From a virus: a stretch of DNA of 64,000 nt. Both the position numbers and the translations under genes were made by a program. Shown here in pieces: positions 5,938 to 56,449 of this stretch. Position 1 is the stretch's first letter. Each line of letters starts with the position of its first letter. The stretch lies in IMG/VR virus record IMGVR_UViG_3300020583_000014, positions 5,742-69,741 of that record. The stretch is one strand, 5' to 3'. The notes under the pieces were generated by a model. The model did not search any database. It saw nothing but the letters and a program-made list of their open reading frames with translations, and had not been told where the DNA came from.

Positions 5938-7298
5938 TCGTACGCTGACTTCTTTCTAACTAACCTTTCTGCCCGCTCCTGTATTGGCCATAGTTCTAAT
6001 GTACGGGCCGCGTCCTGACAAGCATAGGGCAGTATCTTCTCTAAGGGGGTATGGGATATGCACTTACCAGGATAGGGACCAAGCTTAGCCTCTATCTCTT
6101 CATGGTGCATTTCCCAGTTACCCCATCTATCAAACACATCCAGGTTTGGATTAGCCGCAAGATCCGTAAAGAACCTTTTTAGCTTAGTTCCAAAGGACTG
6201 GGGTTTATACCCTTTCCACTCCCCTTTGGTATCCCGTATACATTCCTCGGAGGGCCTGCTCCACTCTTCTTGTAGCCCCCTAGCATAGTATTCTAGAATC
6301 CTATAGGTAGAGTAGGGGCGTACAAGGTCATCAAAGCTCTGCATCTCTGCCCCCAGGAAGCGGTAGGCTAGGGTCTTTAGGCCCTGTGGCATATTCCCTA
6401 GATGATAGGCTTCAGCCATGGTATCTATAATCAGATGATGGGGTACTGGCACCCCCATCCGCTTAAGGATGGGCCGGTCGAACAGCCTATTGTGTAACAG
6501 TATATGACCCTTCCACCTTTGTATCCACCAAGCCAATCTACCCAAAGCACAACTGTCTCCGGCCTGGATAAGTCTAGCTGTGCCTGGGCGCACTGAGAAG
6601 GTAAGGCAAAATGGAGTACCATTACGTGTTATCTCTGTATCGAGGGCCATGTTACATTCTGTATCTTGTTGAATATACTCATCTACGGCACTGCTTGTAT
6701 TTAATACAAACCCGAAATCAGGATTTGGGTACTTATCCTGAGGGATGATTAACTCCCCTTTTAGATACTTGCGGAGGCGGATAAAGCAGCTTCGTAGATG
6801 GAGCATGAACTTGGGCTCATGTATCCCACGTGCTGGATGCCATATTGGAAATATGGCCCTCTCCATATCCCCAGGAACATCCCATATAAAAGGGAAAGCG
6901 AAGTGTACATCAAGATCCAACCCTGGTATCAGGGATGCAATTACTCCCCCTGCTGGTATGATAAGTTCTGGGTTAGTTTCCTTTATTTGCCTATATAAGT
7001 GGTGCTCGGCACAGGATCTTATCATAGCGGCATCTTTAGGGTTGCTGTGGTCTAGCTTACCCTCAGAACTAGTTGGGTAGCAGGCTACTGTGTTGGTTAT
7101 CCTAATATCTCCCCTACGTAATCCAGCCAAAGGTAGGTAGTGCTCCGTAAGCTCCTGCCCAGTTTTACCAACAAAGGGCCTTCCGTACTTTGACTCTTCC
7201 TTTCCAGGTGCTTCTCCAATCAACATGACACTACATTTTTCTGGACCACAAGGGGGCACGATTGGATTCTTACCTGGGCATAGGGGGCATCTATCCAT
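5922..7298 (-). CDS. family-4 uracil-DNA glycosylase fused to 3'-5' exonuclease (N-terminal half of DNA polymerase)
   Basis: CxxC, IGEAPG..E...GRPFVG, HPA (UDG4); LDTE, HNRLFD, YACQDA (Exo I-III). Confidence 0.85.
   Translation of the reverse strand: MDRCPLCPGKNPIVPPCGPEKCSVMLIGEAPGKEESKYGRPFVGKTGQELTEHYLPLAGLRRGDIRITNTVACYPTSSEGKLDHSNPKDAAMIRSCAEHHLYRQIKETNPELIIPAGGVIASLIPGLDLDVHFAFPFIWDVPGDMERAIFPIWHPARGIHEPKFMLHLRSCFIRLRKYLKGELIIPQDKYPNPDFGFVLNTSSAVDEYIQQDTECNMALDTEITRNGTPFCLTFSVRPGTARLIQAGDSCALGRLAWWIQRWKGHILLHNRLFDRPILKRMGVPVPHHLIIDTMAEAYHLGNMPQGLKTLAYRFLGAEMQSFDDLVRPYSTYRILEYYARGLQEEWSRPSEECIRDTKGEWKGYKPQSFGTKLKRFFTDLAANPNLDVFDRWGNWEMHHEEIEAKLGPYPGKCISHTPLEKILPYACQDAARTLELWPIQERAERLVRKKSAYEWFNL
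6691..6713. repeat. 23-bp dispersed palindrome copy (UDG/exonuclease linker)
   Basis: ctgcttgtatttaatacaaaccc, read as GFVLNTSS. Confidence 0.9.
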
Positions 7299-7310
7299 AG
7301 CTGACCTCTA

Positions 7311-7442
7311 TCAATCTGTTCCTTCGAGTTCTTTTACCCTATCGTCTAATTGAGCTATCCCTTTCTCCAGCAAGAGTATTCTCCAGATAAGTATACCTAT
7401 AATAACTAGTACACATACTAGAATACCTATTGAATTTATCAT
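7311..7442 (-). CDS. small single-TM protein (not in ORF track)
   Basis: MINSIGILVCVLVIIGILIWRILLLEKGIAQLDDRVKELEGTD fills the gap between flanking genes. Confidence 0.55.
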   Translation of the reverse strand: MINSIGILVCVLVIIGILIWRILLLEKGIAQLDDRVKELEGTD

Positions 7443-7450
7443 TGAATCTA

Positions 7451-8170
7451 TCATAACTTTACCCCTCTAATTTGCCGCACAATCTTTATAGCAGTAGGAA
7501 CCCCTATCCGGCTAATTTTCATCCAATCCTGCTCCTCCGCGTGTACCATGTTGGGCACAGTCTTGAAATGATCTACCACTTCCTTGCTTCTCTTCACTCC
7601 AATACCATCAATGAGGCAGGCAAACTTACGCTCAAACGAGGGCTTCTCGAATGATGGGACAATAATGTTCTGAGGCTGGGACATACTAGTATGGTTCCCC
7701 CACTCCTTCTGGAACCATTGGTACATAACTTTGATCTGGTATGCAGTCTCCTGAATGTCACCTGACCGCACATACACCGTCCCCGCTACTTGCTGCACAC
7801 TGAGCAGGAATCCAAATAGCTTGTCGTAGAGTACCCTTCGGCCCCCTATTGGTATCCACGTCCCAGCTTTGTACTCTAGAATCAGTCCGGTAGCGGAGGG
7901 CTTCCATAGACCTTCTATGATAAGTAACCTGCGGTGGTAATCTTCCATCATCCCCGGCTGCTGGAATCCAGAAAAGCGCCCATCGTCAATGCAGGATAAA
8001 ATGTCATTGGTCCGTTTGCGTTCCACCCCCACCATGATGTTACCCTCTGGGCCTTTACCCTCGAAGCACACGTCCCCCGCAGAGAGGGTTTCTATTTGCA
8101 CGCCCATGCCAAGGTTACGGAGGTATGGAGCAAGCTCTACAGAGCCCACACGTCTGTCCACCAAGATCAT
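7451..8170 (-). CDS. ERCC4 (XPF/Mus81-type) nuclease with HhH
   Basis: ILVDRR, GD...., VERKRTND...I.DGRF..Q, LIIEG, C-terminal GIGVK and IGVPT HhH motifs. Confidence 0.85.
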   Translation of the reverse strand: MILVDRRVGSVELAPYLRNLGMGVQIETLSAGDVCFEGKGPEGNIMVGVERKRTNDILSCIDDGRFSGFQQPGMMEDYHRRLLIIEGLWKPSATGLILEYKAGTWIPIGGRRVLYDKLFGFLLSVQQVAGTVYVRSGDIQETAYQIKVMYQWFQKEWGNHTSMSQPQNIIVPSFEKPSFERKFACLIDGIGVKRSKEVVDHFKTVPNMVHAEEQDWMKISRIGVPTAIKIVRQIRGVKL

Positions 8171-8481
8171 TTAGTTATCCAAAGTATTAACCACCCAAAT
8201 CCAAGGGAGCATAAAGGAGCAAGTATGATTGATGTATACATTTCCCATACGCTTTGCTCCTCCTTTGCGTATCTAGTGGGGTCGTGGGTTACTAATCCCC
8301 ATATTGTGGATATCCCAATAAAGGATACTTTTGTGGGGGTAGGGCCATGCCATATGGGATTAATGAACCATCCCCATAAAATGGATAGAGCCCACGCTTT
8401 AAGCACTAAACTAAGGGCTAGGGCTGGGATGGCGGCTAAACATCCTAGAGCTACCTCTTCCTTTTCCATTAAAGTCCCCAC
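8167..8481 (-). CDS. membrane protein
   Basis: Several hydrophobic segments; overlaps neighbouring genes by a few bp. Confidence 0.6.
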   Translation of the reverse strand: MGTLMEKEEVALGCLAAIPALALSLVLKAWALSILWGWFINPIWHGPTPTKVSFIGISTIWGLVTHDPTRYAKEEQSVWEMYTSIILAPLCSLGFGWLILWITK

Positions 8482-10492: not shown

Positions 10493-10515
10493 TGGTATGT
10501 ACTTAATACAGACCC
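10493..10515. repeat. 23-bp dispersed palindrome copy (intergenic)
   Basis: tggtatgtacttaatacagaccc. Confidence 0.9.
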
Positions 10516-12126: not shown

Positions 12127-12297
12127 TTACTTCTCCTTTTCTATAAACTCAATTTTAGGTTTTATTGAGGGCCGTCTTTGGTTTAGGTAATGTACAGCAA
12201 ACCTAACTATCTCAGATTTGGTAACTCCCTTATAGTAGTCAACCAACTGATCCATAAGCCCAGGTTCCAACTGGATAGATGTCTTCTCATACTTCAT
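12127..12297 (-). CDS. ribbon-helix-helix DNA-binding protein (not in ORF track)
   Basis: MKYEKTSIQLEPGLMDQLVDYYKGVTKSEIVRFAVHYL..., a beta-alpha-alpha CopG/Arc pattern; ATGA overlap with helicase stop. Confidence 0.65.
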   Translation of the reverse strand: MKYEKTSIQLEPGLMDQLVDYYKGVTKSEIVRFAVHYLNQRRPSIKPKIEFIEKEK

Positions 12298-13847
12298 AAT
12301 TTTGGTGGGGGAGGGGGAGCCACTTGTAACTTTCTGAAAAATTGGTGAAATGTACGTGGCGCAAAATGCCCATACTTACCCCGCGCCCACTCGATATTGT
12401 CATCAATGATGAACGACTCTCCTCGATCCGATTTAGACCGCATGATCCGGCCTATTGTCTGTACCAAGGTCTGCATCATCTTATAAGGACCATACTCCGG
12501 GTCCGCTGCCTGCCGTGCCTGTACAATCTTGGAGCGGCCATCCTGGAAAGGTACCTTGAGAAGTATCTGGTATTCTGCCTCCTTTCCAGCGAAGTCAAAT
12601 CCAGTATTTATGCTGGGGCTTGCCAGTACAGCCGGGGGGCCTGATGCCTTAAACAGGTCAATAGCATCCGTAACCGATTCCCCCTTTGTATTCACTATCA
12701 TTCTGGGACTGTATTTAGTACACGCCAACATTTCCTCTAGCCGCTTCCAGGAGACTGTATGGATAAGCCCCTTTCTATCCCCCCTACGGCCCATGATCTG
12801 ATCTGCCCGTAGGTATAAAAGGGATAGGTCTGTCTGCTTATGGTCATTCCGCATAGTAGGAATCCAATATGTAGGGCAGCGGGAGGCATCAAAGTCTGAA
12901 GGGTACTCAAAGAAATCAAACCTCTCCTGGGGCACCCCAAGCATGTACATGGTCTTGGGCCGGATTGTGGCGGATACCATTATGATACGGGGGATACGGC
13001 AGAACAGTTTAAGTTCTGCGTACCGGGCAGGGCGGATAGGGTCGAACTGCCAGCCTACATCCCTGATCTCTTCTCCTATCCAGTCCTGGGGGGAAGCTGT
13101 TGAGAGGGTAAGTAGCCGCTGCTGAAGGTTAATAAGATGGGAGTATTCTTTAATCCAGGCTGGCTTAGGGTTAGCACATGCTATCTTGATTGTTGCAGCC
13201 TCCAGAGCAATAGTACAAACTATGTGGGCACTCTTAGCCCAGCGTTTCCAGTTCCAAAACTCATCAGCCTCAGTCCCATCTAAGAAAGGTAACCGTAGAG
13301 CTTCAATCTCCTTATGGTGGAGAAGTATTTGCATGTGATTAGCAAGAGCCTCAGGAGCCTCATGACCCTCATCACATATAAGTTGCTCAAAGTTGGAGAA
13401 AGGGGAGTCATCCTTACGGGTTACGAACCACTTGGAATAATTAGTAACACCAAGAGGGGCTACCCTAAGACGCATTTCTGCGGAACTGTAGGGGCACGAT
13501 ACAGAGCCCCAATAAGGGCATCGCCCCACCCTACCATCCTCACAGGTATAGTCCTCCCGTAGTTCACATTGATAGTTTGAGCGCCCACGGATCTCTACCA
13601 TCCCACAGGATGAAAAATCCTGGAGGTATTGATCCATTAACCCCTTAGTAGAGGTTAGAATAATAGTTCTTTTCTTGGAGGCTAATGCGGTAGCAACTAC
13701 GGCAGGGCTCTTTCCGAATCCGGTCGGAGCACAGAATACTGAGGATCTTTTGGGGGAGTTGAGGAGGGAGTTAATACCTTGTTCTTGATTAGTTCTCCAG
13801 GAGGAGAATTTCTTGGGCAACCCAATACTTTCGGGGGTAATTATCAT
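12294..13847 (-). CDS. DinG/Rad3-family SF2 helicase
   Basis: Q motif, APTGFGKS, Fe-S cysteines, DEGH, SAT, GFDF, QTIGRIMRS. Confidence 0.88.
   Translation of the reverse strand: MIITPESIGLPKKFSSWRTNQEQGINSLLNSPKRSSVFCAPTGFGKSPAVVATALASKKRTIILTSTKGLMDQYLQDFSSCGMVEIRGRSNYQCELREDYTCEDGRVGRCPYWGSVSCPYSSAEMRLRVAPLGVTNYSKWFVTRKDDSPFSNFEQLICDEGHEAPEALANHMQILLHHKEIEALRLPFLDGTEADEFWNWKRWAKSAHIVCTIALEAATIKIACANPKPAWIKEYSHLINLQQRLLTLSTASPQDWIGEEIRDVGWQFDPIRPARYAELKLFCRIPRIIMVSATIRPKTMYMLGVPQERFDFFEYPSDFDASRCPTYWIPTMRNDHKQTDLSLLYLRADQIMGRRGDRKGLIHTVSWKRLEEMLACTKYSPRMIVNTKGESVTDAIDLFKASGPPAVLASPSINTGFDFAGKEAEYQILLKVPFQDGRSKIVQARQAADPEYGPYKMMQTLVQTIGRIMRSKSDRGESFIIDDNIEWARGKYGHFAPRTFHQFFRKLQVAPPPPPKL
12705..12727. 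repeat. 23-bp dispersed palindrome copy (inside helicase)
   Basis: gggactgtatttagtacacgcca, read as LACTKYSP. Confidence 0.85.
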
Positions 13848-13858
13848 GGACAATAACA

Positions 13859-13887
13859 ATCATATAACAATATTGCCGGGATGTCAA
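13859..13887 (-). promoter_or_regulatory. sigma70-type promoter for replication operon
   Basis: TTGACA-17-TATGAT on minus strand. Confidence 0.75.
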
Positions 13888-13890: not shown

Positions 13891-14154
13891 TCACGCGGCA
13901 TTTCTATGCCTATTTTTCTCGGATATTGCGTCAATTAAATCCTCCATTGACATTCCCAAAGCTTCAGCTATTAACCGTAATACGCGGGCACTTCCCTTGG
14001 ATTGGCCGCTAAAAATACGGGATAGATACCCAATATTCACTCCCGTTTTATGTCCTATTTTGGTTAGGCTAATGCGGGCTCCACAGAGTATAGGGCTACT
14101 TGAGGTTGGGTGTTCGGCAATACAATAAAAAGGGCCTTCCTGGACAGTTCTCAT
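13891..14154 (-). CDS. XRE/Cro-C1 HTH regulator
   Basis: SLTKIGHKTGVNIGYLSRIFSG...LRLIAEALGMSMEDL. Confidence 0.8.
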   Translation of the reverse strand: MRTVQEGPFYCIAEHPTSSSPILCGARISLTKIGHKTGVNIGYLSRIFSGQSKGSARVLRLIAEALGMSMEDLIDAISEKNRHRNAA

Positions 14155-14203: not shown

Positions 14204-14209
14204 GTGTTT

Positions 14210-14614
14210 ATGAGATTAAGTGAAGCAATCCGGTTAGGGTCCTTACTGGGACCACAGGCATTTGGAACCCTGGCTGATATGCTTGGGGGCACTTGTGCCC
14301 TGGGTTCGGCTGCAAAAGCTATGGGTATACAAATTACAACGGCTTATGAAGCTGAAGATACCCTAAAAGAACTTTTCCCCATATTTGAGTGTGAACAAGA
14401 ACCCCCAGTACCAATGCCTGTGGTTGACTTGTATACGATAATAATGGAGCTTAATGATGCATATCGCTGGAGCCGGGAGAGAATAGCTGATTGGGTGGAG
14501 TTCATTGAGAAAGCTGAAGAGGCCAAAACAGGGCGTGTATTAAATACAGACCCTATTTCAGAGCCTACCGCCCCCTATACTCCTGATCTGGTTTGTAGCC
14601 TACTCCACCAATAG
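14210..14614 (+). CDS. hypothetical protein
   Basis: MRLSEAIRLG..CALG..LND...WSRERIADWV; ATG 7 nt after the -10 box. Confidence 0.7.
   Translation: MRLSEAIRLGSLLGPQAFGTLADMLGGTCALGSAAKAMGIQITTAYEAEDTLKELFPIFECEQEPPVPMPVVDLYTIIMELNDAYRWSRERIADWVEFIEKAEEAKTGRVLNTDPISEPTAPYTPDLVCSLLHQ
14531..14553. repeat. 23-bp dispersed palindrome copy (in CDS)
   Basis: gggcgtgtattaaatacagaccc, read as GRVLNTDP. Confidence 0.95.
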
Positions 14615-14879
14615 CAGCATGGTTGGTCCTGGAGAAATAAAACCCAACCACAGTACCGAACGCGACTGAGAATATAGTGGGTATCTGGAATTGGGGGTCT
14701 TTAACAGCTAGATATCCAGCTACTCCTAGAGTAGCAAATACCACGAATAGCGCTATTGTAGCTTGGGTCCTTTCCCATATGAGATTTATACGGCGCTGCC
14801 CTTCATGGGTCAAATCCTGCTGTGTTGTAGTTGTGGGGGGTAGAGGGCGGTCTGTTAGGGGTAGGCTCATTGTAATCAA
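14565..14879 (-). CDS. holin-like two-TM protein
   Basis: Two TM segments, GTVVGFYFSR ending; end of lysis cluster. Confidence 0.55.
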   Translation of the reverse strand: MITMSLPLTDRPLPPTTTTQQDLTHEGQRRINLIWERTQATIALFVVFATLGVAGYLAVKDPQFQIPTIFSVAFGTVVGFYFSRTNHAAIGGVGYKPDQEYRGR

Positions 14880-16535: not shown

Positions 16536-16558
16536 GGGTGTGTACTAAATACAGACCC
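16536..16558. repeat. 23-bp dispersed palindrome copy (intergenic)
   Basis: gggtgtgtactaaatacagaccc. Confidence 0.95.
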
Positions 16559-19486: not shown

Positions 19487-20847
19487 TCCACCACCTGTAC
19501 AATCAATGTATTTGTGGAGGCATTTGCGGACACGGTACCGCAGGTAGTGGGCATCACTAATCCAGCTCCACTTCCTGTAGGAGCATTGCTTCCGGTAAAC
19601 GCGCCCTTTGCAGCCCCCGCTCGCGATTGCCATTGAGCTAAGTTCCCGTTTGAGCTGTCCGTATTGAATCCAGCAGCCCCCGCTCCAGTGTCTTCTCCAA
19701 GACTATAATAGAAAATACCTGCTGGAATCGTGATTGGCGTGATAGTTACGGTCACAAAGCCTGTACTTGCAAGTGAGAAATTGAGATCACTGCCTGAGAT
19801 TTTCGTACAGGTAGCGTCGAAAAAGGCAATCACTCCAAATTTGGCTGCCACTGCCGTGTCCACGTGTATTTGAATAGTAGTCACAGTCATAGGAACCGGA
19901 GTGAACTCCTGCCAAAAATAGCTCGTAGCGGCGGTAAAGGTTCCAGTAGTCCACAAGTTAGACCCATTTGGCTGATTCAGCAGCCACGGTAGGAATACGT
20001 TATTACCTGTGGTGGTAGGAGCACTTCCCCCACCGTTCGCCTGCTTCCATGTATTAGTGGCATCGCAAAAGTAGAGGTTCAACCCGGTCGTGTCAGTATA
20101 GAAGTCTCTCCCGGCAGTACAGTTTCCAGAGGGGGCTCCAGACCCAGTGAAGTAACGGGGCACCGTTACTGGATCAGTGGTCAACGTCTGCGCTCCTGAT
20201 ATTGCGCTTGGAGTGGACGCAATCCCTTGCCCCGCCACGATCACGTTACGTGAGTAAATGGAACGCTGATCCATCGCTTTAGTGATCGTGTCCCAGACGT
20301 TCGAGTGTATTGTTGTCGTCCAGAGTGGTACGGAATCAGCCGGGAATGCTGTGATTCCAGAAGCAATCGTGCACCCAGAACAGGTAAGCGTTTCTGCCCC
20401 ATTCATACCTACATATAGGATACTATTCAGTTCATACCAATAGACAGTATCATTTGAACTTGTACCACTAATAGTGACAGTAGCCCCTGAAGTCAGGGTC
20501 AAGACGACAACGGACCCTACCCTAATTTGGCACGGTAATGTTGCACTACAAAGGGCTCCAATTGCCTGCACTGTACCGGATGTATTAGAGACATTAAAGT
20601 CAATAAGGCTTGTAGCCGCTAGAGTAGCTGAGGTAGTACAAGTTGGGCAACTGATAACACCAGTCCCAGTAGTTGGACTGGGGGTTACCACCACAGGGGA
20701 TGTGGCAGTTATACTGACAGAACCTCCCCCACCAGAGCTTACACAATCCAAAAGACCTGTGATTGGATTTAGGGTTAACACAGAGCACTGCCCATATGCT
20801 GCCTGAGATAGCCCTAACATTAGAAAAACTAATATAATCTGTTTCAT
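19483..20847 (-). CDS. Thr/Ser/Gly-rich fibre-like protein with signal peptide
   Basis: Start MKQIILVFLMLGLSQAAYG-Q at 20847; GSGAPSGNCTAGRDFYTD..LYFC motif; paired Cys. Confidence 0.65.
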   Translation of the reverse strand: MKQIILVFLMLGLSQAAYGQCSVLTLNPITGLLDCVSSGGGGSVSITATSPVVVTPSPTTGTGVISCPTCTTSATLAATSLIDFNVSNTSGTVQAIGALCSATLPCQIRVGSVVVLTLTSGATVTISGTSSNDTVYWYELNSILYVGMNGAETLTCSGCTIASGITAFPADSVPLWTTTIHSNVWDTITKAMDQRSIYSRNVIVAGQGIASTPSAISGAQTLTTDPVTVPRYFTGSGAPSGNCTAGRDFYTDTTGLNLYFCDATNTWKQANGGGSAPTTTGNNVFLPWLLNQPNGSNLWTTGTFTAATSYFWQEFTPVPMTVTTIQIHVDTAVAAKFGVIAFFDATCTKISGSDLNFSLASTGFVTVTITPITIPAGIFYYSLGEDTGAGAAGFNTDSSNGNLAQWQSRAGAAKGAFTGSNAPTGSGAGLVMPTTCGTVSANASTNTLIVQVVE

Positions 20848-20851
20848 TTTA

Positions 20852-20874
20852 TGGTGTGTATTAAATACAAGCCC
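20852..20874. repeat. 23-bp dispersed palindrome copy (intergenic)
   Basis: tggtgtgtattaaatacaagccc. Confidence 0.9.
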
Positions 20875-20884
20875 TGTTTTGGGG

Positions 20885-43726: not shown

Positions 43727-43749
43727 GGGTCTGTATTAAATACAAACCC
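43727..43749. repeat. 23-bp dispersed palindrome copy (intergenic)
   Basis: gggtctgtattaaatacaaaccc. Confidence 0.95.
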
Positions 43750-46759: not shown

Positions 46760-46782
46760 GGGCGTGTACTTAATACAAACCC
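46760..46782. repeat. 23-bp dispersed palindrome copy (at portal stop codon)
   Basis: gggcgtgtacttaatacaaaccc. Confidence 0.95.
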
Positions 46783-49286
46783 TACTTGGGGGGTCCTTGT
46801 GCGGCTTGGCCGCCCACTGGGGGCATAAGAACTGGAGGTTTGCTAACTAACCCATTTGGGGCTGGCGCGGGTGGACCTCCCGGTTTAGGCGGTCCAGGGG
46901 GGGCAGCAAGAGCGGGGGGAGCTACTCCCGGAGGTCCAGGAGGACCTGGAGGCGTAGGTCCCCCAGGCCCAGGTGGTGCCCCCATCGGGGGTGGAGGGGG
47001 CAAGCTCAATCCTTTATGGGACTTCCAGAAGGCTACCACGTTAGCATACCCATTCGGGTTAGATTGCCTTATACCTTGTGCCTTCTCAGTCTGAAACCAC
47101 TCTTCCAATGCAGCGGCCACAAAATCATGGGGATCATACTCATCCACAGGAATACTCGGGATATCTACGGTCTGACCTGGGGCCATCTGACTGGGCTGCT
47201 GGGTGGGTTGGGCCTGTAAAAGCTGCCGGATCTCGTTCTTTACCTTTGAGAGAGCTTCCTGGTTAGGAATCTCCCAGTTAGGCATCCCTATTATCTTATC
47301 TTGTAGGGCTGGAATGTTGGACGGTAGATTGTAGCCCAGTTGCGTAAGCATCTGCGGATTACCAGCCAGATTCTTAAGATTCTCATTTAGCTGCTCCCTC
47401 TGCTCCGGCCAACTCATTGGTATGGCATCAGCCCCCTCAAAGTGGAATCCACCCTGAAGTAACTCCTCAATGCCATCTACAATATCTACCTCTTGCTGGG
47501 GGGAGAAGGGAGAAGGGATTCTTCCACCTGAATACTTAGCCATCAGTATAACAGCATTATAGGTAACTCCGCACCAATAATCTCTCGCGGAATCTGCCGC
47601 CATGGATAACTGAAGCATGGCCTGATTTCTCTTCAGGTTAGTAGCATACGCAGTAGTCTCTGCTGTACCCGCTCCATAAATTTGAGGAGTGATACCAATA
47701 ATCCCCGCACCAATTTCCCTCTGACCGTCAGAATACTGCTGCATTTCGGGCTCAGGTTTAGCCACAGGTACATGGCCGATTGCGTCGTTAATATTCCCAC
47801 CTTGGCCCGATTGAATAGGGATAAAGGAAGCTGGCAACTGCCTATAGCGGTGTTGAAAGGTTGTATCAATCCTTCTGGTGTCAATGAGTACCTGGGGGAT
47901 AGCCCGCTCCCAGGTTTGTCTTTGGATATTGGCAAGGTCATTTATTAAATCCTGTACGTCTACAAAATCAGTACAAACTGGGTCTGCATATGCTGTCTCC
48001 GCAGGCTCCGGTTGAGCCATACAGAAAAAGTCATCTAAGCGGGCTTCCTTAATCTCAGCAATATAATCACCCGATATAAGGTTAACCTGCATCCCCGTTG
48101 GGTACAATTTCCGCAGGGCATCCCGTGTCTTCATAGTCTGCCCGTTAATCTCCACATCCCCCTGGCAAAGCTCATACATCGTAGGGCGCAGCCATACTTC
48201 AGTGAACATCAGGGTATTTTTGCGGGGGGCAAGATATATACCAGAAGGAGAGGAGGCAATTTCGCGGGTAATCTGGCCCGCTGTGGTGGAAGTACCGCCC
48301 CCACCATAAGCATCCTGCCCCTCGTTCCTGAACTTATCCCTATACTGAGGATACTGCCTGAATATCCGGCCCTTATGTAACTCCCGCTCCCGCATAAGCC
48401 AGTTTGTATCCACAAGGGACTGGATATCAAACTCCGTGGTAATCCTCATCTCGGACTCCACAGTATGTTCTACACAACCATTAGCATATCTCTTAACCCC
48501 CACCTGTTGGGGGAGGGTCATTACCTCAGGCTCTCTGAAATCCTCTTGGCTAAGGGGCTCCCCACAGGTAGGGCACATTTCAGGGAGAACATTGATATCT
48601 TCTACTGAAGTAGAAGTCCCACAGAATTTACATTGCATCGTAGGGGAGCCAACTGGAACTGGAGTATCTTTCATTACCGGCTCCTCTACATACCCATACT
48701 TCTCCCCATCAGCCACAAAGCGGGTATAGCCAAACGCGGGCCCATTCTTATAAAAGGTTAAGAACAACTTCTGGTTATCCCGTTTCACCTTCCATAGATT
48801 ATGAAGTTTGTCGGCTATATCCTGTGCAAGCTTAGCCCTTCTTACATGGTCATCGTTCGTTTCATCATTGGGCTCAGCTTTTACGTTTGGGGGGCCTTGG
48901 GCAAGGACGGCAATGAATTTCCTCCCATATCCCCGGAGATCGTTAACCACTGTATAATAGGTTCCATCGGAGTCGTCGTCCACAAATTCATGCCAAGTTC
49001 CATCGATGGGCTTATAATCAACCAATTGCCCATCTTGATTGTATATCTCGTCGAGGTATTGATTTCCCCTCCAGTAGAGTTCATTTCTGCGTAACTGAGC
49101 ATACCTATATATCTTCTCCGGGTCGATGGCTAACCGTACATCATCTTGTACAAGTCTACCCACAGGCCCACGCAGATTTTCTAGTATAGGGTCCTTTTCA
49201 GGCTTAGAATCAGGGCGTGTATTTAATACAGACCCAGAATCAGAGGGTATATTTGAGGGGGGAAAGGGGGCCAAAGGGGGGGTCAT
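46782..49286 (-). CDS. portal protein (P22/podovirus-like) with zinc-ribbon insert
   Basis: Y..G.Q, N......, P..K..P...D...A..A, QD.IN, G..TA..T...NQA pattern; Pro-rich tail; downstream of terminase. Confidence 0.8.
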   Translation of the reverse strand: MTPPLAPFPPSNIPSDSGSVLNTRPDSKPEKDPILENLRGPVGRLVQDDVRLAIDPEKIYRYAQLRRNELYWRGNQYLDEIYNQDGQLVDYKPIDGTWHEFVDDDSDGTYYTVVNDLRGYGRKFIAVLAQGPPNVKAEPNDETNDDHVRRAKLAQDIADKLHNLWKVKRDNQKLFLTFYKNGPAFGYTRFVADGEKYGYVEEPVMKDTPVPVGSPTMQCKFCGTSTSVEDINVLPEMCPTCGEPLSQEDFREPEVMTLPQQVGVKRYANGCVEHTVESEMRITTEFDIQSLVDTNWLMRERELHKGRIFRQYPQYRDKFRNEGQDAYGGGGTSTTAGQITREIASSPSGIYLAPRKNTLMFTEVWLRPTMYELCQGDVEINGQTMKTRDALRKLYPTGMQVNLISGDYIAEIKEARLDDFFCMAQPEPAETAYADPVCTDFVDVQDLINDLANIQRQTWERAIPQVLIDTRRIDTTFQHRYRQLPASFIPIQSGQGGNINDAIGHVPVAKPEPEMQQYSDGQREIGAGIIGITPQIYGAGTAETTAYATNLKRNQAMLQLSMAADSARDYWCGVTYNAVILMAKYSGGRIPSPFSPQQEVDIVDGIEELLQGGFHFEGADAIPMSWPEQREQLNENLKNLAGNPQMLTQLGYNLPSNIPALQDKIIGMPNWEIPNQEALSKVKNEIRQLLQAQPTQQPSQMAPGQTVDIPSIPVDEYDPHDFVAAALEEWFQTEKAQGIRQSNPNGYANVVAFWKSHKGLSLPPPPPMGAPPGPGGPTPPGPPGPPGVAPPALAAPPGPPKPGGPPAPAPNGLVSKPPVLMPPVGGQAAQGPPK
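49213..49235. repeat. 23-bp dispersed palindrome copy (portal N-terminus)
   Basis: gggcgtgtatttaatacagaccc, read as GSVLNTRP. Confidence 0.95.
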
Positions 49287-49291
49287 TTATA

Positions 49292-49320: not shown

Positions 49321-49326
49321 AGATAT

Positions 49327-49536: not shown

Positions 49537-49539
49537 TTA

Positions 49540-50416: not shown

Positions 50417-50736
50417 ATAGTAAGTTCCTTCATTCTTCTAACTGAAGTATTAGGCCAAGCCACACAAGCGTATCTATCCCCTAAAGATAATAACCCTTTT
50501 GACCAAGCTGCTAGAGCGGCTGCACCCACACAAGCGTCTTTAGCCCCATTATATATTGCCCTATTTAGATGGGGGCGTAAATATTCATTAGTAAAAACCA
50601 TCCCCCCTGGGAGTAAATCATTAAGTAGAAACCTAATAGTAGAATAACGAGGATCAGATTCTACCCCCTTATTATTGGGGTGACTATTACCAGCAATTAG
50701 CCCCACTGGGGCTAAAAAAAAGGATCTACGGTTCAA
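50413..50736 (-). CDS. small protein with twin-arginine-like leader, resembling adaptor termini
   Basis: MNRRSFF; segments similar to 37265..38221. Confidence 0.55.
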   Translation of the reverse strand: MNRRSFFLAPVGLIAGNSHPNNKGVESDPRYSTIRFLLNDLLPGGMVFTNEYLRPHLNRAIYNGAKDACVGAAALAAWSKGLLSLGDRYACVAWPNTSVRRMKELTI

Positions 50737-52772
50737 TTCACCCTCCTAGGCTGCTTAAAGAAGCGGGAAGACTCAGGGCGCACATTGAAAGGCTGCATTT
50801 TACCCTTTCCATGCTTAAATTCATCTTCGTATTGACGGGCTACATGACAAAGGGAGTTATAATCCATATTAGGATTCATTGCGCGGGCCTCATCAAGCTT
50901 TCTTTTGACGAAACTCTGCTGTGGCTCGGGAATCTGATGAACGTTCTCAGAAAATAGGGTATACCTAAGGCTATCGCAAAAATCGTCTTCTGGAGTGTTA
51001 CGTTTGAGCACATCCTCTGTGCCCTCTTTATACTCTGCCGTAGGTATTGCTTCAATTAGCTTAGAACAGTTATCGAAAATAAGCAACTTGGGTAAAATCT
51101 CAGGCTTGCGGGCCTCAAATGATCTCAAATACTCCTTATAAAGTTGTGTATTCTCGTGCAACAGCTTCATGGAATACTCATAATCAAAAGTCTGCTTACT
51201 TGACTCAGAAAGTTGCCGGAAACGGAGCATTTCCCGTATGTGCTGCCATCCTAGGATACGATCATTAGGGGCCTTCTCTATGGTAATGCCAAATTCCCTC
51301 TGTTTGCGGGCTTTTTTGACATCCGAAAGCCCCCATTCCGGGCTTGTATTAAATACAGACCCTGTTTGAGGGGCCAACTGCTCATAAAATTCAGGTATAT
51401 AGGCGGCTCCAACCCCTAAAACGGAGTCAATCCCCTTCCCGATATGGGCGGCAATGGTGTTCTCCCCAGCATCCCGTGAAAATGCGTCAAAAGAGAGCCA
51501 TAACTGCATGTGGGGGGGTACCCCGGCCTTCTCCATAGCCATCAAATCATGGAAACTAGCCCTTGCGATAGCTGCCCCAACAGCATCAGAGCTAGTTTCG
51601 TTACCAGAAAGCTCCCTATATATGATAGTTTGACCATTCTGATCCCGACAGGCCCATAGGAAGACGTAATTATGACCATAACCCCAGTCCCCACCTATCC
51701 AGCGGGGCCAAAAAGGAGCCAAAGCATGACTTCCAGCAGGAATAACATGGCGAGCCACGTCACCAGGAGGGTCACCAGCAAGGGGACCTTTGGGCCGGAA
51801 GTCACGAAAGTACTGCCCACCAAGAGCATCCCAATCCCCAAGCAACCAAGCGGATCTAGTGGGCTCAGGTAACGCATCCAGTTGCTTAACATATTGACCA
51901 TCCCGCATCAGATAGGGATTATCCGTCACTTTTGAGGGTATATAAATGCGGGTAAGACCGCTGCGCTCGTCCTTATATATAGTGTCCGGTGGGCCTACCG
52001 ATATAAACCGTTTCTTAACCCAAATTGCACCCTTCCCTCCAGGATTAGTAGTACATAAAATCTGGGGTTTGAGGGCTCCACAAACACAATTCCCAGGTCT
52101 GCATTTACCCTTACAGGAGAAAGTTGAGCGGCAAGAGGCTGCAATTCGGAGATATAGAAGCTCATCGGATACCTGAGTAAGCTCCTCGAATACAATTCTA
52201 TGGAACTCCTGCCCCATATAATCAGTATAGGAAGATTCATCCCGCATATGACCTAATACAAAGGTGGCCCCACTGGGCCACACTGCGCGGGCAGGCTTCT
52301 CTGTTACATTTGCTCCCATAGGTCCGTAAAGCATCTTGGCACGGGAAAGCCAATCCGCAAGATCCTTCTCATTTTCTCTAAGGATGAGAGCGCGGTAGTG
52401 AGGGTGGGCTATATAACTAATGTTGACACAGATTCCACAGTAGGAATCATCCCCTACCCCCTGCATGATATGTTCCCCACCAGGGTGGGTACCAGTCTCC
52501 GAAGGGTTACCCTTAAGAAGGAATCCCCTACCACATTCCGTCTTACCCCCTCCGCGAGCACCCCCAAAAAGTATCTCAAATGCAGGGCTTATGAGAGTAC
52601 GAATCATCGGTCCAGGGGGGCACCCATAGATACAAGTAGACTTACCCTTCTCCAATAATTCAAAATGATGGCGGCAATAAGTTGGAACCCAATGGGCCTG
52701 CCCCTTAATCTCCCCAGTCTCAAATCCAATAGGGGGGGCAACACCCCTAGGTTTAGCCATAGATACTACCAC
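50733..52772 (-). CDS. terL: terminase large subunit
   Basis: Walker A GGARGGGKT, Walker B FEELTQ, motif III TTNPGG, nuclease GGDWGY and DDFCDSLRY. Confidence 0.92.
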   Translation of the reverse strand: MVVSMAKPRGVAPPIGFETGEIKGQAHWVPTYCRHHFELLEKGKSTCIYGCPPGPMIRTLISPAFEILFGGARGGGKTECGRGFLLKGNPSETGTHPGGEHIMQGVGDDSYCGICVNISYIAHPHYRALILRENEKDLADWLSRAKMLYGPMGANVTEKPARAVWPSGATFVLGHMRDESSYTDYMGQEFHRIVFEELTQVSDELLYLRIAASCRSTFSCKGKCRPGNCVCGALKPQILCTTNPGGKGAIWVKKRFISVGPPDTIYKDERSGLTRIYIPSKVTDNPYLMRDGQYVKQLDALPEPTRSAWLLGDWDALGGQYFRDFRPKGPLAGDPPGDVARHVIPAGSHALAPFWPRWIGGDWGYGHNYVFLWACRDQNGQTIIYRELSGNETSSDAVGAAIARASFHDLMAMEKAGVPPHMQLWLSFDAFSRDAGENTIAAHIGKGIDSVLGVGAAYIPEFYEQLAPQTGSVFNTSPEWGLSDVKKARKQREFGITIEKAPNDRILGWQHIREMLRFRQLSESSKQTFDYEYSMKLLHENTQLYKEYLRSFEARKPEILPKLLIFDNCSKLIEAIPTAEYKEGTEDVLKRNTPEDDFCDSLRYTLFSENVHQIPEPQQSFVKRKLDEARAMNPNMDYNSLCHVARQYEDEFKHGKGKMQPFNVRPESSRFFKQPRRVN
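51340..51362. repeat. 23-bp dispersed palindrome copy (inside terminase nuclease domain)
   Basis: gggcttgtattaaatacagaccc, read as GSVFNTSP. Confidence 0.95.
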
Positions 52773-55222: not shown

Positions 55223-55245
55223 GGGTCTGTATTTAGTACCCGCCT
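55223..55245. repeat. 23-bp dispersed palindrome copy (intergenic)
   Basis: gggtctgtatttagtacccgcct. Confidence 0.8.
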
Positions 55246-55405
55246 ATATTGAGGTTTCCTCGTAAAGGTTATAACTCTCTACAAATACCCCCATAATACC
55301 CAAAAGGTCTACTAGATCCTTAACTCTAGCCTCAGTACTTTTAACATTTATAGCATGTCTAAACCTTGAATCATCCAACAACCATATTCTCCAAACTTGT
55401 CTCAT
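55244..55405 (-). CDS. small hypothetical protein (leaderless)
   Basis: ATG 55405, 7 nt after the -10 box. Confidence 0.55.
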   Translation of the reverse strand: MRQVWRIWLLDDSRFRHAINVKSTEARVKDLVDLLGIMGVFVESYNLYEETSI

Positions 55406-55411
55406 ATAATA

Positions 55412-55455
55412 AGTGTATAGGAATATTGACAAATAAGCAAGGTAACTGGTATCCT
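55412..55455. promoter_or_regulatory. overlapping divergent sigma70 promoters, both apparently leaderless
   Basis: Plus: TTGACA-18-TATCCT, ATG 55462. Minus: TTGCTT-17-TACACT, ATG 55405. Confidence 0.75.
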
Positions 55456-55461
55456 TATACT

Positions 55462-55701
55462 ATGTACAAGTTTGAAGACCCTAACCTAAGGAAATCCTTC
55501 GCAGAAGTACACCCTTTTATCATATATATGGACGGCTCCTACCAGTCTCGGTTCTCTACCCTAAATTGCGCGGCTAGTACTGCTTCCCACCTAAGACTTA
55601 AGAATCCAGACGCAACAATAGAAATAAAAGATGATTCGGGTAGGCCGTATGAGTACTCCTCAGCAACCTCTTTTAGAGGTAATATAAGACATGGATCTTA
55701 A
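55462..55701 (+). CDS. small hypothetical protein (leaderless)
   Basis: MYKFEDPNLRK start 7 nt after the -10 box. Confidence 0.6.
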   Translation: MYKFEDPNLRKSFAEVHPFIIYMDGSYQSRFSTLNCAASTASHLRLKNPDATIEIKDDSGRPYEYSSATSFRGNIRHGS

Positions 55702-56449
55702 ATGCCCCCTATGCACACACGATCTGGCAGAAGACATAAACCGTGATCTTGTCCTCTATCATATGTCAGCCACCGCTGTGGCTCTCAAGTATGGTATCAA
55801 CCACCACAAGCTTGTAACTAAACATAAACCCCATATCACAAAGAGTCTAGCAGCGGCAGCAGAACGCCGGGAGATCACTGCCCATGACCGCCTCCTAGCT
55901 GATACAGAAATGCTATGGAGGGAGACACAAGAAGCCTTAAAGGAAAGTAAGAGTGCAGTCAAGAGTATGGCGGTAACAGAAGGCTACGGGAAGGAGGCAA
56001 GGACAGCATACCGGGAGTATAAGGATCTAGCCCCCCTTATATCTGCCCTCAAAGTAGCCCATGATAACCGCAGACTTTTTGGGGATGCCACAGGAGCTAT
56101 AAAAGGGGGGGCATCTACCTCACAGGTAGGGGTTTACCTCTCTATTGCCATGCCCCGTATGGAGGGGGGACCCCCTGCAATAGAAGGGCGTGTACTAAAT
56201 ACAAACCCTGTTCTAGAGAGTGAAACAGAGGAAGAAAACGAGTTATGGGCCGGGGCGGGTAATGCCGCACGGGAGGTATCCCCTATACCACCTGAAGACC
56301 ACCCGGCCCTATCCAAACGCAAGAAAGTGTATAAGCCACTCAAGAAAGGGGTACCGGACTTCCGCGCAGGCAGCCCGGGTAAGATGACGCGGGTAAAGCA
56401 ACATGTGAAGGATAAAATCTGGGGTAAGGATAGGGAGTACGGAAAATAA
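55691..56449 (+). CDS. possible terminase small subunit / HTH protein
   Basis: CxxC..H, HTH-like ATAVALKYGI..., KH..H, helical oligomerisation segment; function inferred. Confidence 0.45.
   Translation: MDLKCPLCTHDLAEDINRDLVLYHMSATAVALKYGINHHKLVTKHKPHITKSLAAAAERREITAHDRLLADTEMLWRETQEALKESKSAVKSMAVTEGYGKEARTAYREYKDLAPLISALKVAHDNRRLFGDATGAIKGGASTSQVGVYLSIAMPRMEGGPPAIEGRVLNTNPVLESETEEENELWAGAGNAAREVSPIPPEDHPALSKRKKVYKPLKKGVPDFRAGSPGKMTRVKQHVKDKIWGKDREYGK
56186..56208. repeat. 23-bp dispersed palindrome copy (in CDS)
   Basis: gggcgtgtactaaatacaaaccc, read as GRVLNTNP. Confidence 0.95.

Follow-up and report, generated by a model that had tools for sequence, protein, structure and literature searches.

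Why should a short palindrome recur inside essential proteins of a phage as well as in the gaps between its genes, and which protein could recognise it? We addressed this question in a contiguous stretch of 64,000 nucleotides (the window) from a phage genome of 69,741 bp. The source is an uncultured soil phage. The original observation of a recurring palindrome was confirmed, and the repetition is far above chance: TGTAYTWARTACA, whose outer arms are mostly GGG...CCC, has 26 exact matches in the window against 0.01 expected (none of 100 shuffles gets to 26), and GGGNNTGTAYTWARTACANNCCC, with up to three mismatches allowed, has 27 matches against 0.10 expected. The whole genome contains 28 exact palindrome cores. 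The site comprises 23 letters, 16 of them fixed and 7 degenerate, and it is a quasi-palindrome, none of the 28 copies being perfectly palindromic. Ten copies lie within ORFs and 18 are non-coding; regions outside ORFs of at least 80 aa, which represent 13% of the genome, hold these 18 sites (P = 4.6e-10), most of them in short gaps that directly follow a stop codon and closely precede a start codon. The sites in the window are given below, together with remarks from two relatives, L014 and L029, that have 91% and 84% DNA identity.

491..513: last 7 codons of the PurA/PurZ-like ORF 488..1636 (minus strand); frame 3, ACIKYRP followed by the stop.
2746..2768: one mismatch; in a doubtful 80-aa ORF, 2568..2810 (minus strand), frame 1; absent from the earlier list.
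3433..3455: non-coding, 6 nt past tRNA-Met (3352-3426, plus strand); identical in L029.
6691..6713: two outer-arm mismatches; UDG-exonuclease linker, frame 1.
10493..10515: intergenic, 36 nt past a stop codon and 4 nt ahead of a start codon.
12705..12727: one mismatch; helicase ORF, frame 3, ACTKYSP.
14531..14553: 11 nt past the stop of the minus-strand gene 14565..14879; within the putative plus-strand ORF 14204..14614, GRVLNTDP.
16536..16558: fills a 31-nt gap, 3 nt past a stop codon and 5 nt ahead of a start codon.
20852..20874: one mismatch; 10 nt past a stop codon and in frame with the long ORF 19483..21198; probably intergenic, because an ATG lies 4 nt downstream.
22737..22759: 776-aa ORF 21665..23995 (minus strand), frame 1, GSVLNTSP at aa 413.
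25601..25623: one mismatch; Pro-rich stretch of the 682-aa ORF 23995..26043 (minus strand), frame 1, GRVLNTST.
31023..31045: two mismatches; intergenic, 11 nt past a stop codon and 8 nt ahead of a start codon.
33680..33702: intergenic, 3 nt past a stop codon and 9 nt ahead of a start codon.
35682..35704: intergenic, 12 nt past a stop codon and 38 nt ahead of a start codon.
38251..38273: intergenic, 29 nt ahead of a start codon.
40555..40577: intergenic, 4 nt past a stop codon and 40 nt ahead of a start codon.
43727..43749: intergenic, 15 nt past a stop codon.
46760..46782: shares 1 nt with the stop codon of the 834-aa ORF.
49213..49235: aa 18-25 of the 834-aa ORF 46782..49286 (minus strand; the putative portal), frame 1, GSVLNTRP; identical in L014.
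51340..51362: terminase large subunit, aa 471-478, frame 1, GSVFNTSP; identical in L014.
55223..55245: degenerate, two mismatches; full core in L014; absent from the earlier list.
56186..56208: plus-strand gene 55691..56449 (252 aa), frame 1, GRVLNTNP; its only differences from L014 are at degenerate positions 14, 19 and 20.
58072..58094: non-coding, 22 nt ahead of a start codon.
58614..58636: non-coding.
60538..60560: non-coding, with an extra half-site immediately adjacent.
63158..63180: two mismatches, flipped polarity; divergent region between the minus- and plus-strand gene blocks.
63494..63516: 16 nt ahead of the plus-strand gene 63533..63988.

Eight of the copies within ORFs share one reading frame, which gives the peptide G-x-V-L/F-N-T-x-P and is the sole frame open for every site variant; the remaining two, in the helicase and the PurA-like ORF, are in another frame. 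Three of the genes that carry copies are the following.

5922..7298, minus strand: UDG and 3'-5' exonuclease ORF, 458 aa (Pfam UDG, 5.8e-20; DNA_pol_A_exo1, 2.9e-5).
12294..13859, minus strand: Rad3/DinG-type helicase ORF, 521 aa, bearing site 12705.
50733..52772, minus strand: terminase large subunit (TerL) ORF, 679 aa, bearing site 51340.

The peptides previously reported in the UDG-exonuclease, the 14210 ORF, two Pro-rich proteins, the terminase, and the proteins called portal and TerS-like were all recovered. In contrast, the GSVLTTA copy ascribed to a PD-(D/E)XK tail (9859-9882) was not recovered at up to three mismatches and is at best a decayed relic, and sequence comparisons with Pfam, PHROG and PDB lend no support to the designations portal, TerS-like, PD-(D/E)XK or internal protein. 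The 776-aa ORF includes a His_Phos_1 domain at 550-708, and 55691..56449 (plus strand) shows 9, 9 and 43 substitutions by codon position against the 91%-identical relative, which indicates that it is a real gene. The alignment of homologues that had been proposed for telling insertion from replacement revealed three different situations: in TerL the copy is an insertion of 7-10 residues in a variable loop, missing in homologues of 61% identity or less; in the UDG-exonuclease the copy GFVLNTSS (aa 196-203, between Pfam UDG at 17-157 and DNA_pol_A_exo1 at 201-319) is a replacement with a net gain of one residue; and in the helicase it consists of conservative substitutions inside a conserved, indel-free segment. 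The idea that sites are placed in tolerant loops and termini thus describes the TerL loop, the UDG-exonuclease linker, the Pro-rich stretches, and an N-terminal and a C-terminal tail, but not the helicase.

The palindrome is found about every 2,500 letters (roughly one per 2-3 kb) along the whole 69.7-kb genome, and the coefficient of variation (CV) of the spacing is 0.47 versus 0.95 under random placement (P < 5e-5). Intergenic copies are missing from four long stretches, and it is there that the seven clearly intragenic copies lie (P = 4e-5 for the CV and 0.0017 for the largest gap). The regular spacing and this filling of the long gaps support the selection for site density that had been suggested. 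Among related loci, the CV is under the random mean in 19 of 19, with P < 0.05 in 14 of 19, these loci being kin and not independent; a complete 63-kb relative has 44 sites with a CV of 0.66 (P = 0.0017).

Orthologous site positions are retained in L014 and L029, where only 1 of 112 fixed positions is changed versus 13.4 expected (P = 2e-5), and 6 of 49 degenerate positions are changed. One of these site changes alters the protein (F to S in the UDG-exonuclease) but brings the DNA closer to the consensus. Given these counts, the non-coding majority of the copies and the use of two frames, the constraint acts on the DNA and not on the protein, as originally proposed; the peptide was not conserved in homologues that lack the palindrome, and synonymous positions did not vary freely among relatives. 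Similar arrays exist across the clade: an iterated 11-bp word, GTA-N5-TAC, is present in 31 of the 36 IMG/VR loci that encode a homologue of the UDG-exonuclease, with a common architecture and inner letters that differ from phage to phage. TGTA-N5-TACA is enriched 10-60-fold in the 12 of 12 loci retrieved through the ParB-like protein described below, and in one relative (G004, 74% complete) the array is built on a different palindrome, TTTACTWAGTAAA.

These comparisons bear on whether the site could be a tiny mobile element inserting in frame, as MITEs and Rickettsia palindromic elements do, the peptide being a by-product of transposition. The clean insertion in TerL would fit, as would an additional VV(N/T)TG insertion about 20 residues downstream in two UDG-exonuclease relatives. 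Nevertheless, we consider this very improbable: the helicase copy involves no indel and the UDG-exonuclease copy a single extra residue, orthologous positions are kept, the spacing is even with no clustering, there are neither target duplications nor flanking repeats, a transposase was not found, and related phages have the same layout with other inner letters. Rickettsia palindromic elements are selfish insertions of 100-150 bp, translated as extra peptide segments in otherwise conserved proteins, whereas the sites described here have 13-23 bp, are evenly spaced and conserved in position, and one of them arose by point substitutions alone.

Regarding the form in which the site is recognised, complementarity at the mirror positions 4/20, 5/19 and 10/14 of the 28 copies is no higher than in shuffles. 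The 33 related loci gave 178 unique GTAATSATTAC sites, whose flanks (±6 to ±13) have mirrored base preferences but a complementarity at shuffle level (z 0.2-2.3). The half-sites therefore vary independently, and the pattern is that of double-stranded DNA recognised by a dimer and not that of a hairpin. A hairpin in RNA or single-stranded DNA, acting as a transcript 3' end or terminator, as a processing or stabilising stem-loop, or as a lagging-strand priming signal, would agree with the position of the site at 10 tight minus-strand gene junctions (its start lies from -1 to 36 nt past the stop codon), and the minus strand is the sense strand for most genes. On this strand, mirror positions 4/20 and 10/14 show T.G more often than C.A (24 versus 7; P = 0.003), and at 18 of 28 sites its RNA fold is the more stable one (P = 0.046); the site spacing of 1.2-2.5 kb also resembles the length of Okazaki fragments. 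A hairpin is improbable, however, since covariation is absent from both sets of sites, position 5/19 is Watson-Crick in only 5 of 28 copies (6 with G.U), and the folds are weak (mean -7.8 kcal/mol). Moreover, most relatives have a palindrome of just 13 bp, leaving a 5-bp stem; the tails beside the sites (about one third T-rich, several with A-runs) have no consistent T-run; copies occur mid-way in essential ORFs on either coding strand; and an Rfam search returned only two tRNAs and nothing at the sites.

Neither the T.G-over-C.A bias nor the weak polarity of the sites (18 of 25 have one orientation, with a one-sided AAATA extension) would be expected of a purely symmetric dimer site. This genome-wide polarity is independent of local gene direction, as illustrated by the site within 55691..56449, which retains minus polarity in a plus-strand gene, and it could point to a target for a site-specific enzyme, either a place where the HNH enzyme or some other nuclease of the phage makes strand-specific nicks, or a hot spot of recombination. 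Strand-specific nicks occur in T5-like and some Pseudomonas phages; genes for an HNH endonuclease and an ERCC4-type nuclease are present in this phage, as are other nuclease-like ORFs, and the contigs of one relative stop or diverge at palindromes. We judge an enzyme target quite improbable given that contig breaks can be assembly artefacts caused by repeats, that the polarity is not uniform (7 of 25 sites flipped), that the sites of relatives are symmetric 13-mers, and that the HNH gene region is unalignable in the 84%-identical relative, which retains all its sites.

For a double-stranded dimer site, the following gene encodes the best candidate binder.

3713..5113 of the genome, plus strand, just outside the window: ParB/Noc/KorB-family protein, 466 aa.

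The profile of its family matches Spo0J (2e-14), Noc and KorB (1e-8) across the N-terminal and helix-turn-helix domains. With its AlphaFold model (pLDDT 91), Foldseek retrieved Noc, ParB and KorB at about 1e-8, the best match being Noc 7ng0 (1.3e-8; KorB, 9e-8), and residues G69, R72, N109 and R112 are invariant across 48 family members. The predicted homodimer scored 0.52 versus 0.00 for the best control, with an interface at residues 398-465, at least 72% of contacts reproduced from run to run and a partner pLDDT of at least 75; this mark is attained by 20 of 30 solved homomers and 1 of 23 monomers, and here it may reflect likeness to ParB-family dimers already solved. The protein is present in every related record in which the syntenic region is covered, and each of 14 genomes or loci has a site 39-782 nt upstream of its gene; two incomplete array-bearing relatives, G005 (58% complete) and G004, gave no ParB_N match. 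The co-occurrence of gene and array is confounded by common descent, both being traits of one clade. The residues of the recognition helix partly track the inner letters, and ATSAT goes with two different helix types. Of the ParB GERR box only the second Arg is kept (GxxR), which makes CTP binding uncertain, and the ORFs scanned included no ParA-like partner. From sequence and structural models, we infer that this ParB-like protein is the most likely binder.

The evidence for a double-stranded dimer site fits equally well another dimeric DNA-binding protein of the phage acting as a genome-wide repressor or roadblock, after the model of the dispersed operators of phage P1; an 87-aa Cro/C1-type (HTH_3) protein is encoded at 13891..14154 (minus strand). 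The location of most non-coding sites just after stops or before starts recalls stoperators as described in the accessible text of PMC9283540, and dimeric regulatory proteins were likewise proposed for the Cluster O repeats (PMC4351075, accessible text). Such a repressor is a possibility that we regard as rather unlikely: an HTH_3 homologue was detected in 1 of 12 related loci (L018; short proteins are easily missed) versus 12 of 12 for the ParB-like gene, promoter control needs neither even spacing nor copies in the middle of ORFs, and no integrase or other lysogeny genes were found among the ORFs scanned.

Overall, we somewhat favour a scheme in which the palindrome is the docking site of a dimeric, phage-encoded ParB-like clamp. 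Selection would maintain roughly one site per 2-3 kb across the genome, and where a run of long or overlapping genes offers no free gap, the site would be built into coding sequence, mostly in the always-open frame, so that Gly-x-Val-Leu/Phe-Asn-Thr-x-Pro appears in linkers, loops and tails; the helicase site would have arisen instead by conservative amino-acid replacements. The clamp, once loaded, would slide about 1 kb either way, and evenly spaced sites would allow it to cover the entire chromosome; such coverage might serve to control transcription globally, to organise the genome or to protect it.

Among published systems, the Cluster O mycobacteriophages come closest, with genomes of about 70 kb and more than 30 copies of a 17-bp dyad repeat, 5'-TGTTCGGNNNCCGAACA, located in short intergenic gaps and in ORFs (11 clearly coding in Corndog) at positions conserved among relatives (PMC4351075). 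According to the accessible text of that report, a dimeric protein was predicted to bind the repeats, whose function was left unknown, and a link with the ParB-like domain protein that these phages encode was judged unlikely (PMC4351075). The two systems differ in sequence, phage lineage and host, and the inner letters vary clade-wide in the present one; even spacing and an imprint on protein sequences, both found here, do not appear in the accessible text (PMC4351075). As for the stoperators of Cluster A mycobacteriophages, more than 20 repressor-site copies are distributed genome-wide, many in short intergenic spaces, and, as far as the accessible text describes them, they are asymmetric 13-mers bound by a monomer and oriented with transcription (PMC9283540), whereas the present site is a quasi-palindrome with weak, gene-independent polarity.

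Noc from Bacillus subtilis is a ParB-family CTP switch that, as described in the accessible text of two reports, nucleates on a 16-bp palindrome (NBS) chromosome-wide and not at a single centromere (PMC8429893, bioRxiv 10.1101/2022.02.28.481274). In both systems the palindrome is dispersed over the whole chromosome, and the closest fold hit for the candidate binder is Noc; unlike the present protein, Noc, in those accounts, is of cellular origin and anchors DNA at the membrane, and the site density is far higher here.

The IncP plasmid RK2 carries about a dozen OB operators for KorB. It resembles the present system in that a ParB-family protein recognises a short palindrome which recurs along a mobile replicon of about 60 kb, and, in the accessible text, the KorB clamp closes at OB and slides up to 1.5 kb to promoters (PMC11790492), a range that matches the site spacing observed here and so provides an argument of scale for a ParB-like binder. 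No KorA-like partner was identified in this phage. Unlike KorB and RK2, the present system belongs to a phage without sign of plasmid maintenance, and it comprises 28 evenly spaced sites with copies inside ORFs.

The palindrome behind the original prediction is real: TGTAYTWARTACA has 26 copies in the window, where 0.01 would be expected, and the 23-bp form GGGNNTGTAYTWARTACANNCCC has 27 matches at no more than 3 mismatches against 0.10 expected. Of the 28 copies of the core in the whole genome, 10 lie wholly within ORFs of at least 80 aa. Such ORFs span 87% of the genome, a count as low as 10 having P = 4.6e-10. The copies are evenly distributed; the 28 gaps have a CV of 0.47, random placement gives 0.95, not one of 20,000 simulations reached the same evenness, and 20 gaps measure 1.8-3.3 kb. 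When the 21 intergenic or gene-end copies are kept in place, the 7 clearly intragenic copies occupy the 4 long empty stretches; with random placement of these 7, the observed CV was matched in 4e-5 of trials, and the observed largest gap in 0.0017. The earlier inference that site density is under selection is therefore supported both by the even spacing and by the intragenic copies that fill the long gaps. The peptides quoted for individual proteins were all found in place, but the copy assigned to a PD-(D/E)XK tail, at 9859-9882, departs from the site at 4 or more positions and cannot be counted as one. Neither Pfam nor PHROGs nor PDB sequences supported the labels portal, TerS-like, PD-(D/E)XK or internal protein, and the site-bearing ORF 14204..14614(+) is considered a putative gene. 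The decayed palindrome-like copy at 9859-9882 lies at the junction of an HNH endonuclease region (9267-9891) that cannot be aligned with the 84%-identical IMG/VR relative L029, both flanks of the region being alignable.

The contig ends of the 69,741-bp record share a 137-bp repeat with 99.3% identity, and because the ends repeat each other the phage genome is taken as complete or nearly so. Its G+C content is 48%, and the public sequencing runs that contain the phage are soil metagenomes. Nearly all genes are carried on the (-) strand; one (+) block runs from window position 63533 across the contig end to genome position 5113, and a second, small one lies at about 55366-57500. The latter is real, given that its ORF 55691..56449(+) shows 9/9/43 substitutions by codon position relative to the 91%-identical metagenome contig L014. 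The genes recognised encode a split family-A DNA polymerase, a protein combining UDG and a 3'-5' exonuclease, a Rad3/DinG-type helicase, a PurA/PurZ-like synthetase, an ERCC4 nuclease, an HNH endonuclease, an AAA_24 ATPase, the terminase large subunit (TerL) and two ParB-domain proteins. The structural proteins are mostly without any match. Searches of the phage collection with DNA, TerL, UDG-exonuclease and the ParB-like protein recovered no cultured relative, the best TerL identity there being ~28%, and neither the TerL searches of genome contigs nor a first viral search from a single TerL protein gave a match. Some further features of the gene content were observed. The 1023-aa ORF 16562-19633 (-) resembles right-handed beta-helix (pectate-lyase-like) proteins, many of them from Acidobacteriota (scores 0.89); as a lead, it is probably a tailspike, and the Acidobacteriota among its look-alikes give a weak hint of the host. 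The 776-aa Pro-rich ORF 21665-23995 (-) includes a histidine-phosphatase domain, His_Phos_1, at residues 550-708 (9.6e-21), and the 265-aa ORF 54129-54926 (-) is missing from L014 (786 indel columns).

The frame that starts at the first G of the site is open in every site variant and by direct translation gives G-x-V-L/F-N/S-T-x-(P); a central T is required for the second frame to be open, and a central A for the third. Eight of the 10 in-ORF copies use the first frame, two the third (both with a central A) and none the second. Since the first frame is open for all variants and is used by most copies, the recurring peptide is the site translated in its most permissive frame. The preference of the in-ORF copies for this frame is suggestive: the probability of at least 8 is 0.003 with equal frames and 0.055 with the first frame given half weight, and after removal of two doubtful ORFs (6/8 in the first frame) it becomes 0.02 or 0.14. 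The Rfam search returned two tRNAs only, which are the following:

3352-3426, (+): phage tRNA gene, tRNA-Met(CAT)
3885-3967, (+): phage tRNA gene, tRNA-Leu(TAA)

The tRNA-Leu(UAA) decodes TTA, which is also the codon set by the palindrome for Leu in its usual frame (4 in-ORF copies), possibly by coincidence.

Conservation of the sites as DNA was evaluated with L014 (8.9% mismatches, 4 sites) and L029 (16% mismatches, 3 sites), where 7 of 7 orthologous sites are kept. Only one of 112 letters is changed at the 16 fixed positions, where the overall mismatch rates predict 13.4 (Poisson P = 2e-5); at the 7 degenerate positions 6 of 49 letters are changed (Fisher P = 0.003). In the UDG-exonuclease gene 28% of the identical-residue codons differ between the window and L029; the site in this gene is changed at degenerate position 5 alone, at the cost of an F-to-S replacement. 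The use of two frames by the in-ORF copies and the conservation of the fixed positions in relatives indicate that the constraint acts on DNA, which had been the central claim, and neither a peptide kept without the palindrome nor free synonymous variation was seen in the comparison with homologues and with L014 and L029.

The alignments with homologues reveal how the sites entered the proteins: as an insertion in TerL, a replacement in the UDG-exonuclease linker and conservative substitutions in the helicase. Among 40 TerL homologues (one a fragment without the site region), a 99% relative shares PQ(T/V)GSVFNTSPEW with the query and a 70% relative has PTVLNTGQSGPQW; in relatives of 53-61% identity (P0003-P0017) the region is shorter by 7-10 or more residues, and below this group its length is variable. 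In the AlphaFold model of TerL, which is poor overall (mean pLDDT 50.6), the peptide falls within residues 464-490, a coil of low confidence. In the alignment with 28 UDG-exonuclease homologues, the site falls in the linker separating two Pfam domains, with one residue gained relative to distant relatives. Of the 11 relatives at 57-79% identity, 8 have V-L-N-T and another two VVST or VVTT, whereas V-L-N-T occurs in 0 of 17 at no more than 51%. A further VV(N/T)TG insertion ~20 residues downstream in two relatives suggests site turnover inside this linker. The helicase segment, aligned with 28 homologues, has no indel and reads C-T-K-Y-S in the query, C-(S/T)-K-Y-S in 4 of the closest relatives and x-S-R-F/Y-S in 21 more distant ones, hence this site was made by conservative replacements. 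Intein or homing-endonuclease Pfam domains (PF14890, PF14528, PF05204, PF07591) occur in several relatives' terminase and helicase genes, and the domain-bearing homologues of TerL (P0007, P0015, P0019, P0033) and of the helicase (P0242, P0244, P0311, P0320) are 300-400 residues longer.

The array extends to the related phages, which share a replication module (PolA 45-54%, UDG-exonuclease 43-46% and helicase 50-54% identity) and were collected from IMG/VR as 12 loci via the 466-aa ParB-like protein and 36 loci via the UDG-exonuclease. TGTA-N5-TACA is enriched 10-60-fold in 12 of 12 loci of the first set, and an iterated 11-bp GTA-N5-TAC word is present in 31 of 36 of the second. The inner letters are phage-specific; ATCAT is the commonest, and ATAAT, AAGAT, ACCGT, ACCAT, AATAT, AACTT and GCNGC are also used, the window's own inner word being found in L029, the 82% relative. 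The 5 loci lacking the word are the most distant or the shortest, and one of them has GTAATGCATTAC four times. Another of the five, the distant relative L063 (an IMG/VR provirus record, 74% complete, with 35% identity in the UDG-exonuclease), has an iterated palindrome of another kind, TTTACTWAGTAAA, in which the inner nine letters are one variant of the window core; no ParB_N match was found in this partial record. In 19 of 19 loci the CV of the spacing is under the random mean, with P < 0.05 in 14 of them and a combined P = 6.5e-18 over loci that are related and thus non-independent. A complete 63-kb relative has 44 sites with a CV of 0.66 (P = 0.0017), 11 within ORFs over 150 aa, and relatives have their own sites at other positions of the PolA, nuclease and helicase genes. 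The exact 23-bp pattern was found in 12 IMG/VR contigs, L029 among them, with one copy each and hence no array, and no iterated word was present in 13 and 22 kb of structural genes from two distant TerL relatives (46-47% identity; L013, L015). A full-text motif search of main articles returned no description of this clade's sites. For each of the 8 palindromes of 31001-51000, contigs of a ~93-95% identical relative in one soil run stop, jump or diverge no more than ~12 nt away, at the following break points:

31018: contig break point near a palindrome
33681/33706: contig break points near a palindrome
35714/35717: contig break points near a palindrome
38255: contig break point near a palindrome
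40577: contig break point near a palindrome
43722: contig break point near a palindrome
46755: contig break point near a palindrome
49212/49218: contig break points near a palindrome

These are either assembly breaks at the repeat or mosaic boundaries.

Regarding the kind of element, none of the 28 copies is a perfect palindrome. Watson-Crick pairs are formed at the variable mirror positions in 11/28, 5/28 and 13/28 copies versus 12.6, 8.0 and 16.1 expected from shuffles, and the RNA folds of the sites are weak (mean -7.8 kcal/mol). The flanks of 178 unique GTAATSATTAC sites from 33 loci show mirrored base preferences with complementarity at shuffle level (z 0.2-2.3). A hairpin is disfavoured given that complementarity does not exceed that of shuffles in the 28 copies or in the 178 relatives' sites. 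The site is instead a 13-16-bp dyad-symmetric double-stranded element with independently degenerate halves, as are those of the parS, OB and NBS type; since the half-sites vary independently around a 13-bp core, the pattern fits a dimeric protein on double-stranded DNA rather than a hairpin. A 2-aminoadenine (PurZ) genome that might favour hairpin-type signals was also considered, and dropped on account of the nearest phage homologues of the PurA-like gene being in large myoviruses; this ORF, 488-1636 (-), matches the PHROG '2-aminooxy adenylosuccinate synthetase' (PurZ-type; 1.7e-54), its nearest phage homologues occur in large Rhizobium, Vibrio and Mycobacterium phages, and a full-text search of main articles for PurZ, phage and palindrome returned nothing relevant. 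Intrinsic terminators were predicted 13 times versus 19.3 expected, none at a site, and the site tails are inconsistently T-rich; sigma-70-like host promoters numbered 23 versus 30.8 expected, none at the palindromes. A signal for a phage RNA polymerase was discarded, no such polymerase family being found among the phage ORFs examined; a 305-aa ORF of the replication module, followed up with this idea, obtained no name. Mobile miniature elements (MITE, REP or RPE) are opposed by the indel-free helicase copy, the retention of 7/7 orthologous sites and the even spacing. An oriented site of the stoperator type does not agree with a quasi-palindrome, nor with the site in the (+) gene 55691..56449, which retains (-) polarity. 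As a minor alternative to the dimeric protein, a strand-specific process involving RNA, single-stranded DNA or nicking may act at the sites; it is kept alive by a one-sided AAATA extension (which partly corresponds to stop codons), by a polarity common to 18 of 25 sites, and by T.G combinations outnumbering C.A ones on the (-) strand (24 versus 7). The preferred arms also differ (left GGGTC, right CGCCC), and the polarity does not follow the local gene direction.

The candidate for a dimeric binder of the palindrome is encoded next to the window:

Genome 3713..5113, (+): ParB-like candidate binder P0362, 466 aa, just beyond the window

Its family profile matches Spo0J, Noc, ParB and KorB over the N-terminal and helix-turn-helix domains (E 2e-14 to 1e-8). 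The N-terminal ParB/Srx domain is recognised by box II (GxxRxxA), box III (ENxxR) and the alignment of the profile with Spo0J residues 43-211 (E = 2e-14); all 48 family members have G69, R72, N109 and R112, and E108 is almost invariant among them. Only the second Arg of the 'GERR' box is kept, and CTP binding, as judged from these residues, is uncertain. Profile and fold matches cover both the N-terminal domain and the helix-turn-helix domain that follows it, and a fold search with the AlphaFold model (pLDDT 91) recovers the same ParB-family structures. The DNA-binding domain is followed by two long helices spanning about 170 residues and then by a small C-terminal domain, through which (residues 398-465) the modelled homodimer is formed. 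The homodimer model scores 0.52 versus 0.00 for the best control, with at least 72% of contacts agreeing and a partner pLDDT of at least 75. Among reference cases, 20 of 30 solved homomers and 1 of 23 monomers attained this mark. The C-terminal domain is thus predicted to dimerise, and its likeness to solved ParB dimers may explain the result.

The gene of the ParB-like protein is present in every related record whose syntenic region is covered, and all 14 genomes or loci compared have a site 39-782 nt upstream of the gene, a weak comparison in that its null was random positions and not other gene starts. The recognition helix partly tracks the inner letters (His with GTAAA..., Phe/NMT or Met/NIY with AT(S/W)AT), and two helix types share one motif. 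From this co-occurrence and partial covariation we infer that the ParB-like protein is the most likely binder of the palindrome. Against the link, the co-occurrence is inside one clade, two incomplete related records have arrays and no ParB match, CTP binding is uncertain, and a partner protein was not found among the ORFs searched. The 87-aa Cro/C1-type HTH_3 protein is an alternative candidate for the binder; its gene (13891-14154, (-)) is divergent from the putative (+) ORF 14204..14614. A ParABS partition system finds no support: a ParA-like family was not found among 46 ORFs searched with Pfam, 30 of them also with PHROGs and the small ORFs covered in part, and the sites are dispersed rather than clustered. 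The second ParB/Srx-domain protein (genome 1073-1885 (+), locus L016, beyond the window, 270 aa, DGRHR motif) has no homologue that could be found in the related loci.

Taken together, both the observation and the interpretation of the original prediction stand. The array is a clade-wide lattice, most likely of protein docking sites, and the recurring peptide is the shadow of this lattice in proteins. A more ambitious proposal, to which we would give somewhat less than an even chance, is that in this large and entirely uncultured soil and freshwater phage clade a ParB-family clamp would load from palindromes 1-2.5 kb apart and coat the entire chromosome, the need for gap-free coverage being strong enough to rewrite the terminase, the helicase and the polymerase-associated exonuclease. 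The specificities of site and protein would co-evolve phage by phage via the inner five letters of GTA-N5-TAC, and a partition protein without a partition role would have become a phage 'chromatin' or self-marking system. The homologue alignments and the relatives' DNA show that a non-coding DNA signal can dictate amino acids in essential phage proteins by insertion, replacement or conservative substitution; for annotation, the recurring peptide should not be taken for a protein motif. In practice the lattice can also help to identify genomes that belong to this uncultured clade, and a single purified protein with a single 23-bp oligonucleotide would be enough to test site function.

The published system closest to this array is the 17-bp dyad repeat of the Cluster O mycobacteriophages, described in PMC4351075 as having 34 copies, 11 clearly intragenic, at positions conserved among relatives, and for which its authors predicted a dimeric binder. 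The palindrome shares with it tens of copies of one dyad word, inside and between ORFs, at conserved positions; dispersed phage repeats of this unexplained kind, published only for Cluster O, are here tied to even spacing, a phage-specific but clade-wide code and a candidate protein. In contrast, the Cluster A stoperators, as presented in PMC9283540, are asymmetric and oriented with transcription, unlike the quasi-palindrome. The nearest mechanistic models for the palindrome and the ParB-like protein are KorB/OB and Noc/NBS; KorB is reported in PMC11790492 to slide as far as 1.5 kb from its site, in line with the site spacing in the phage genome.
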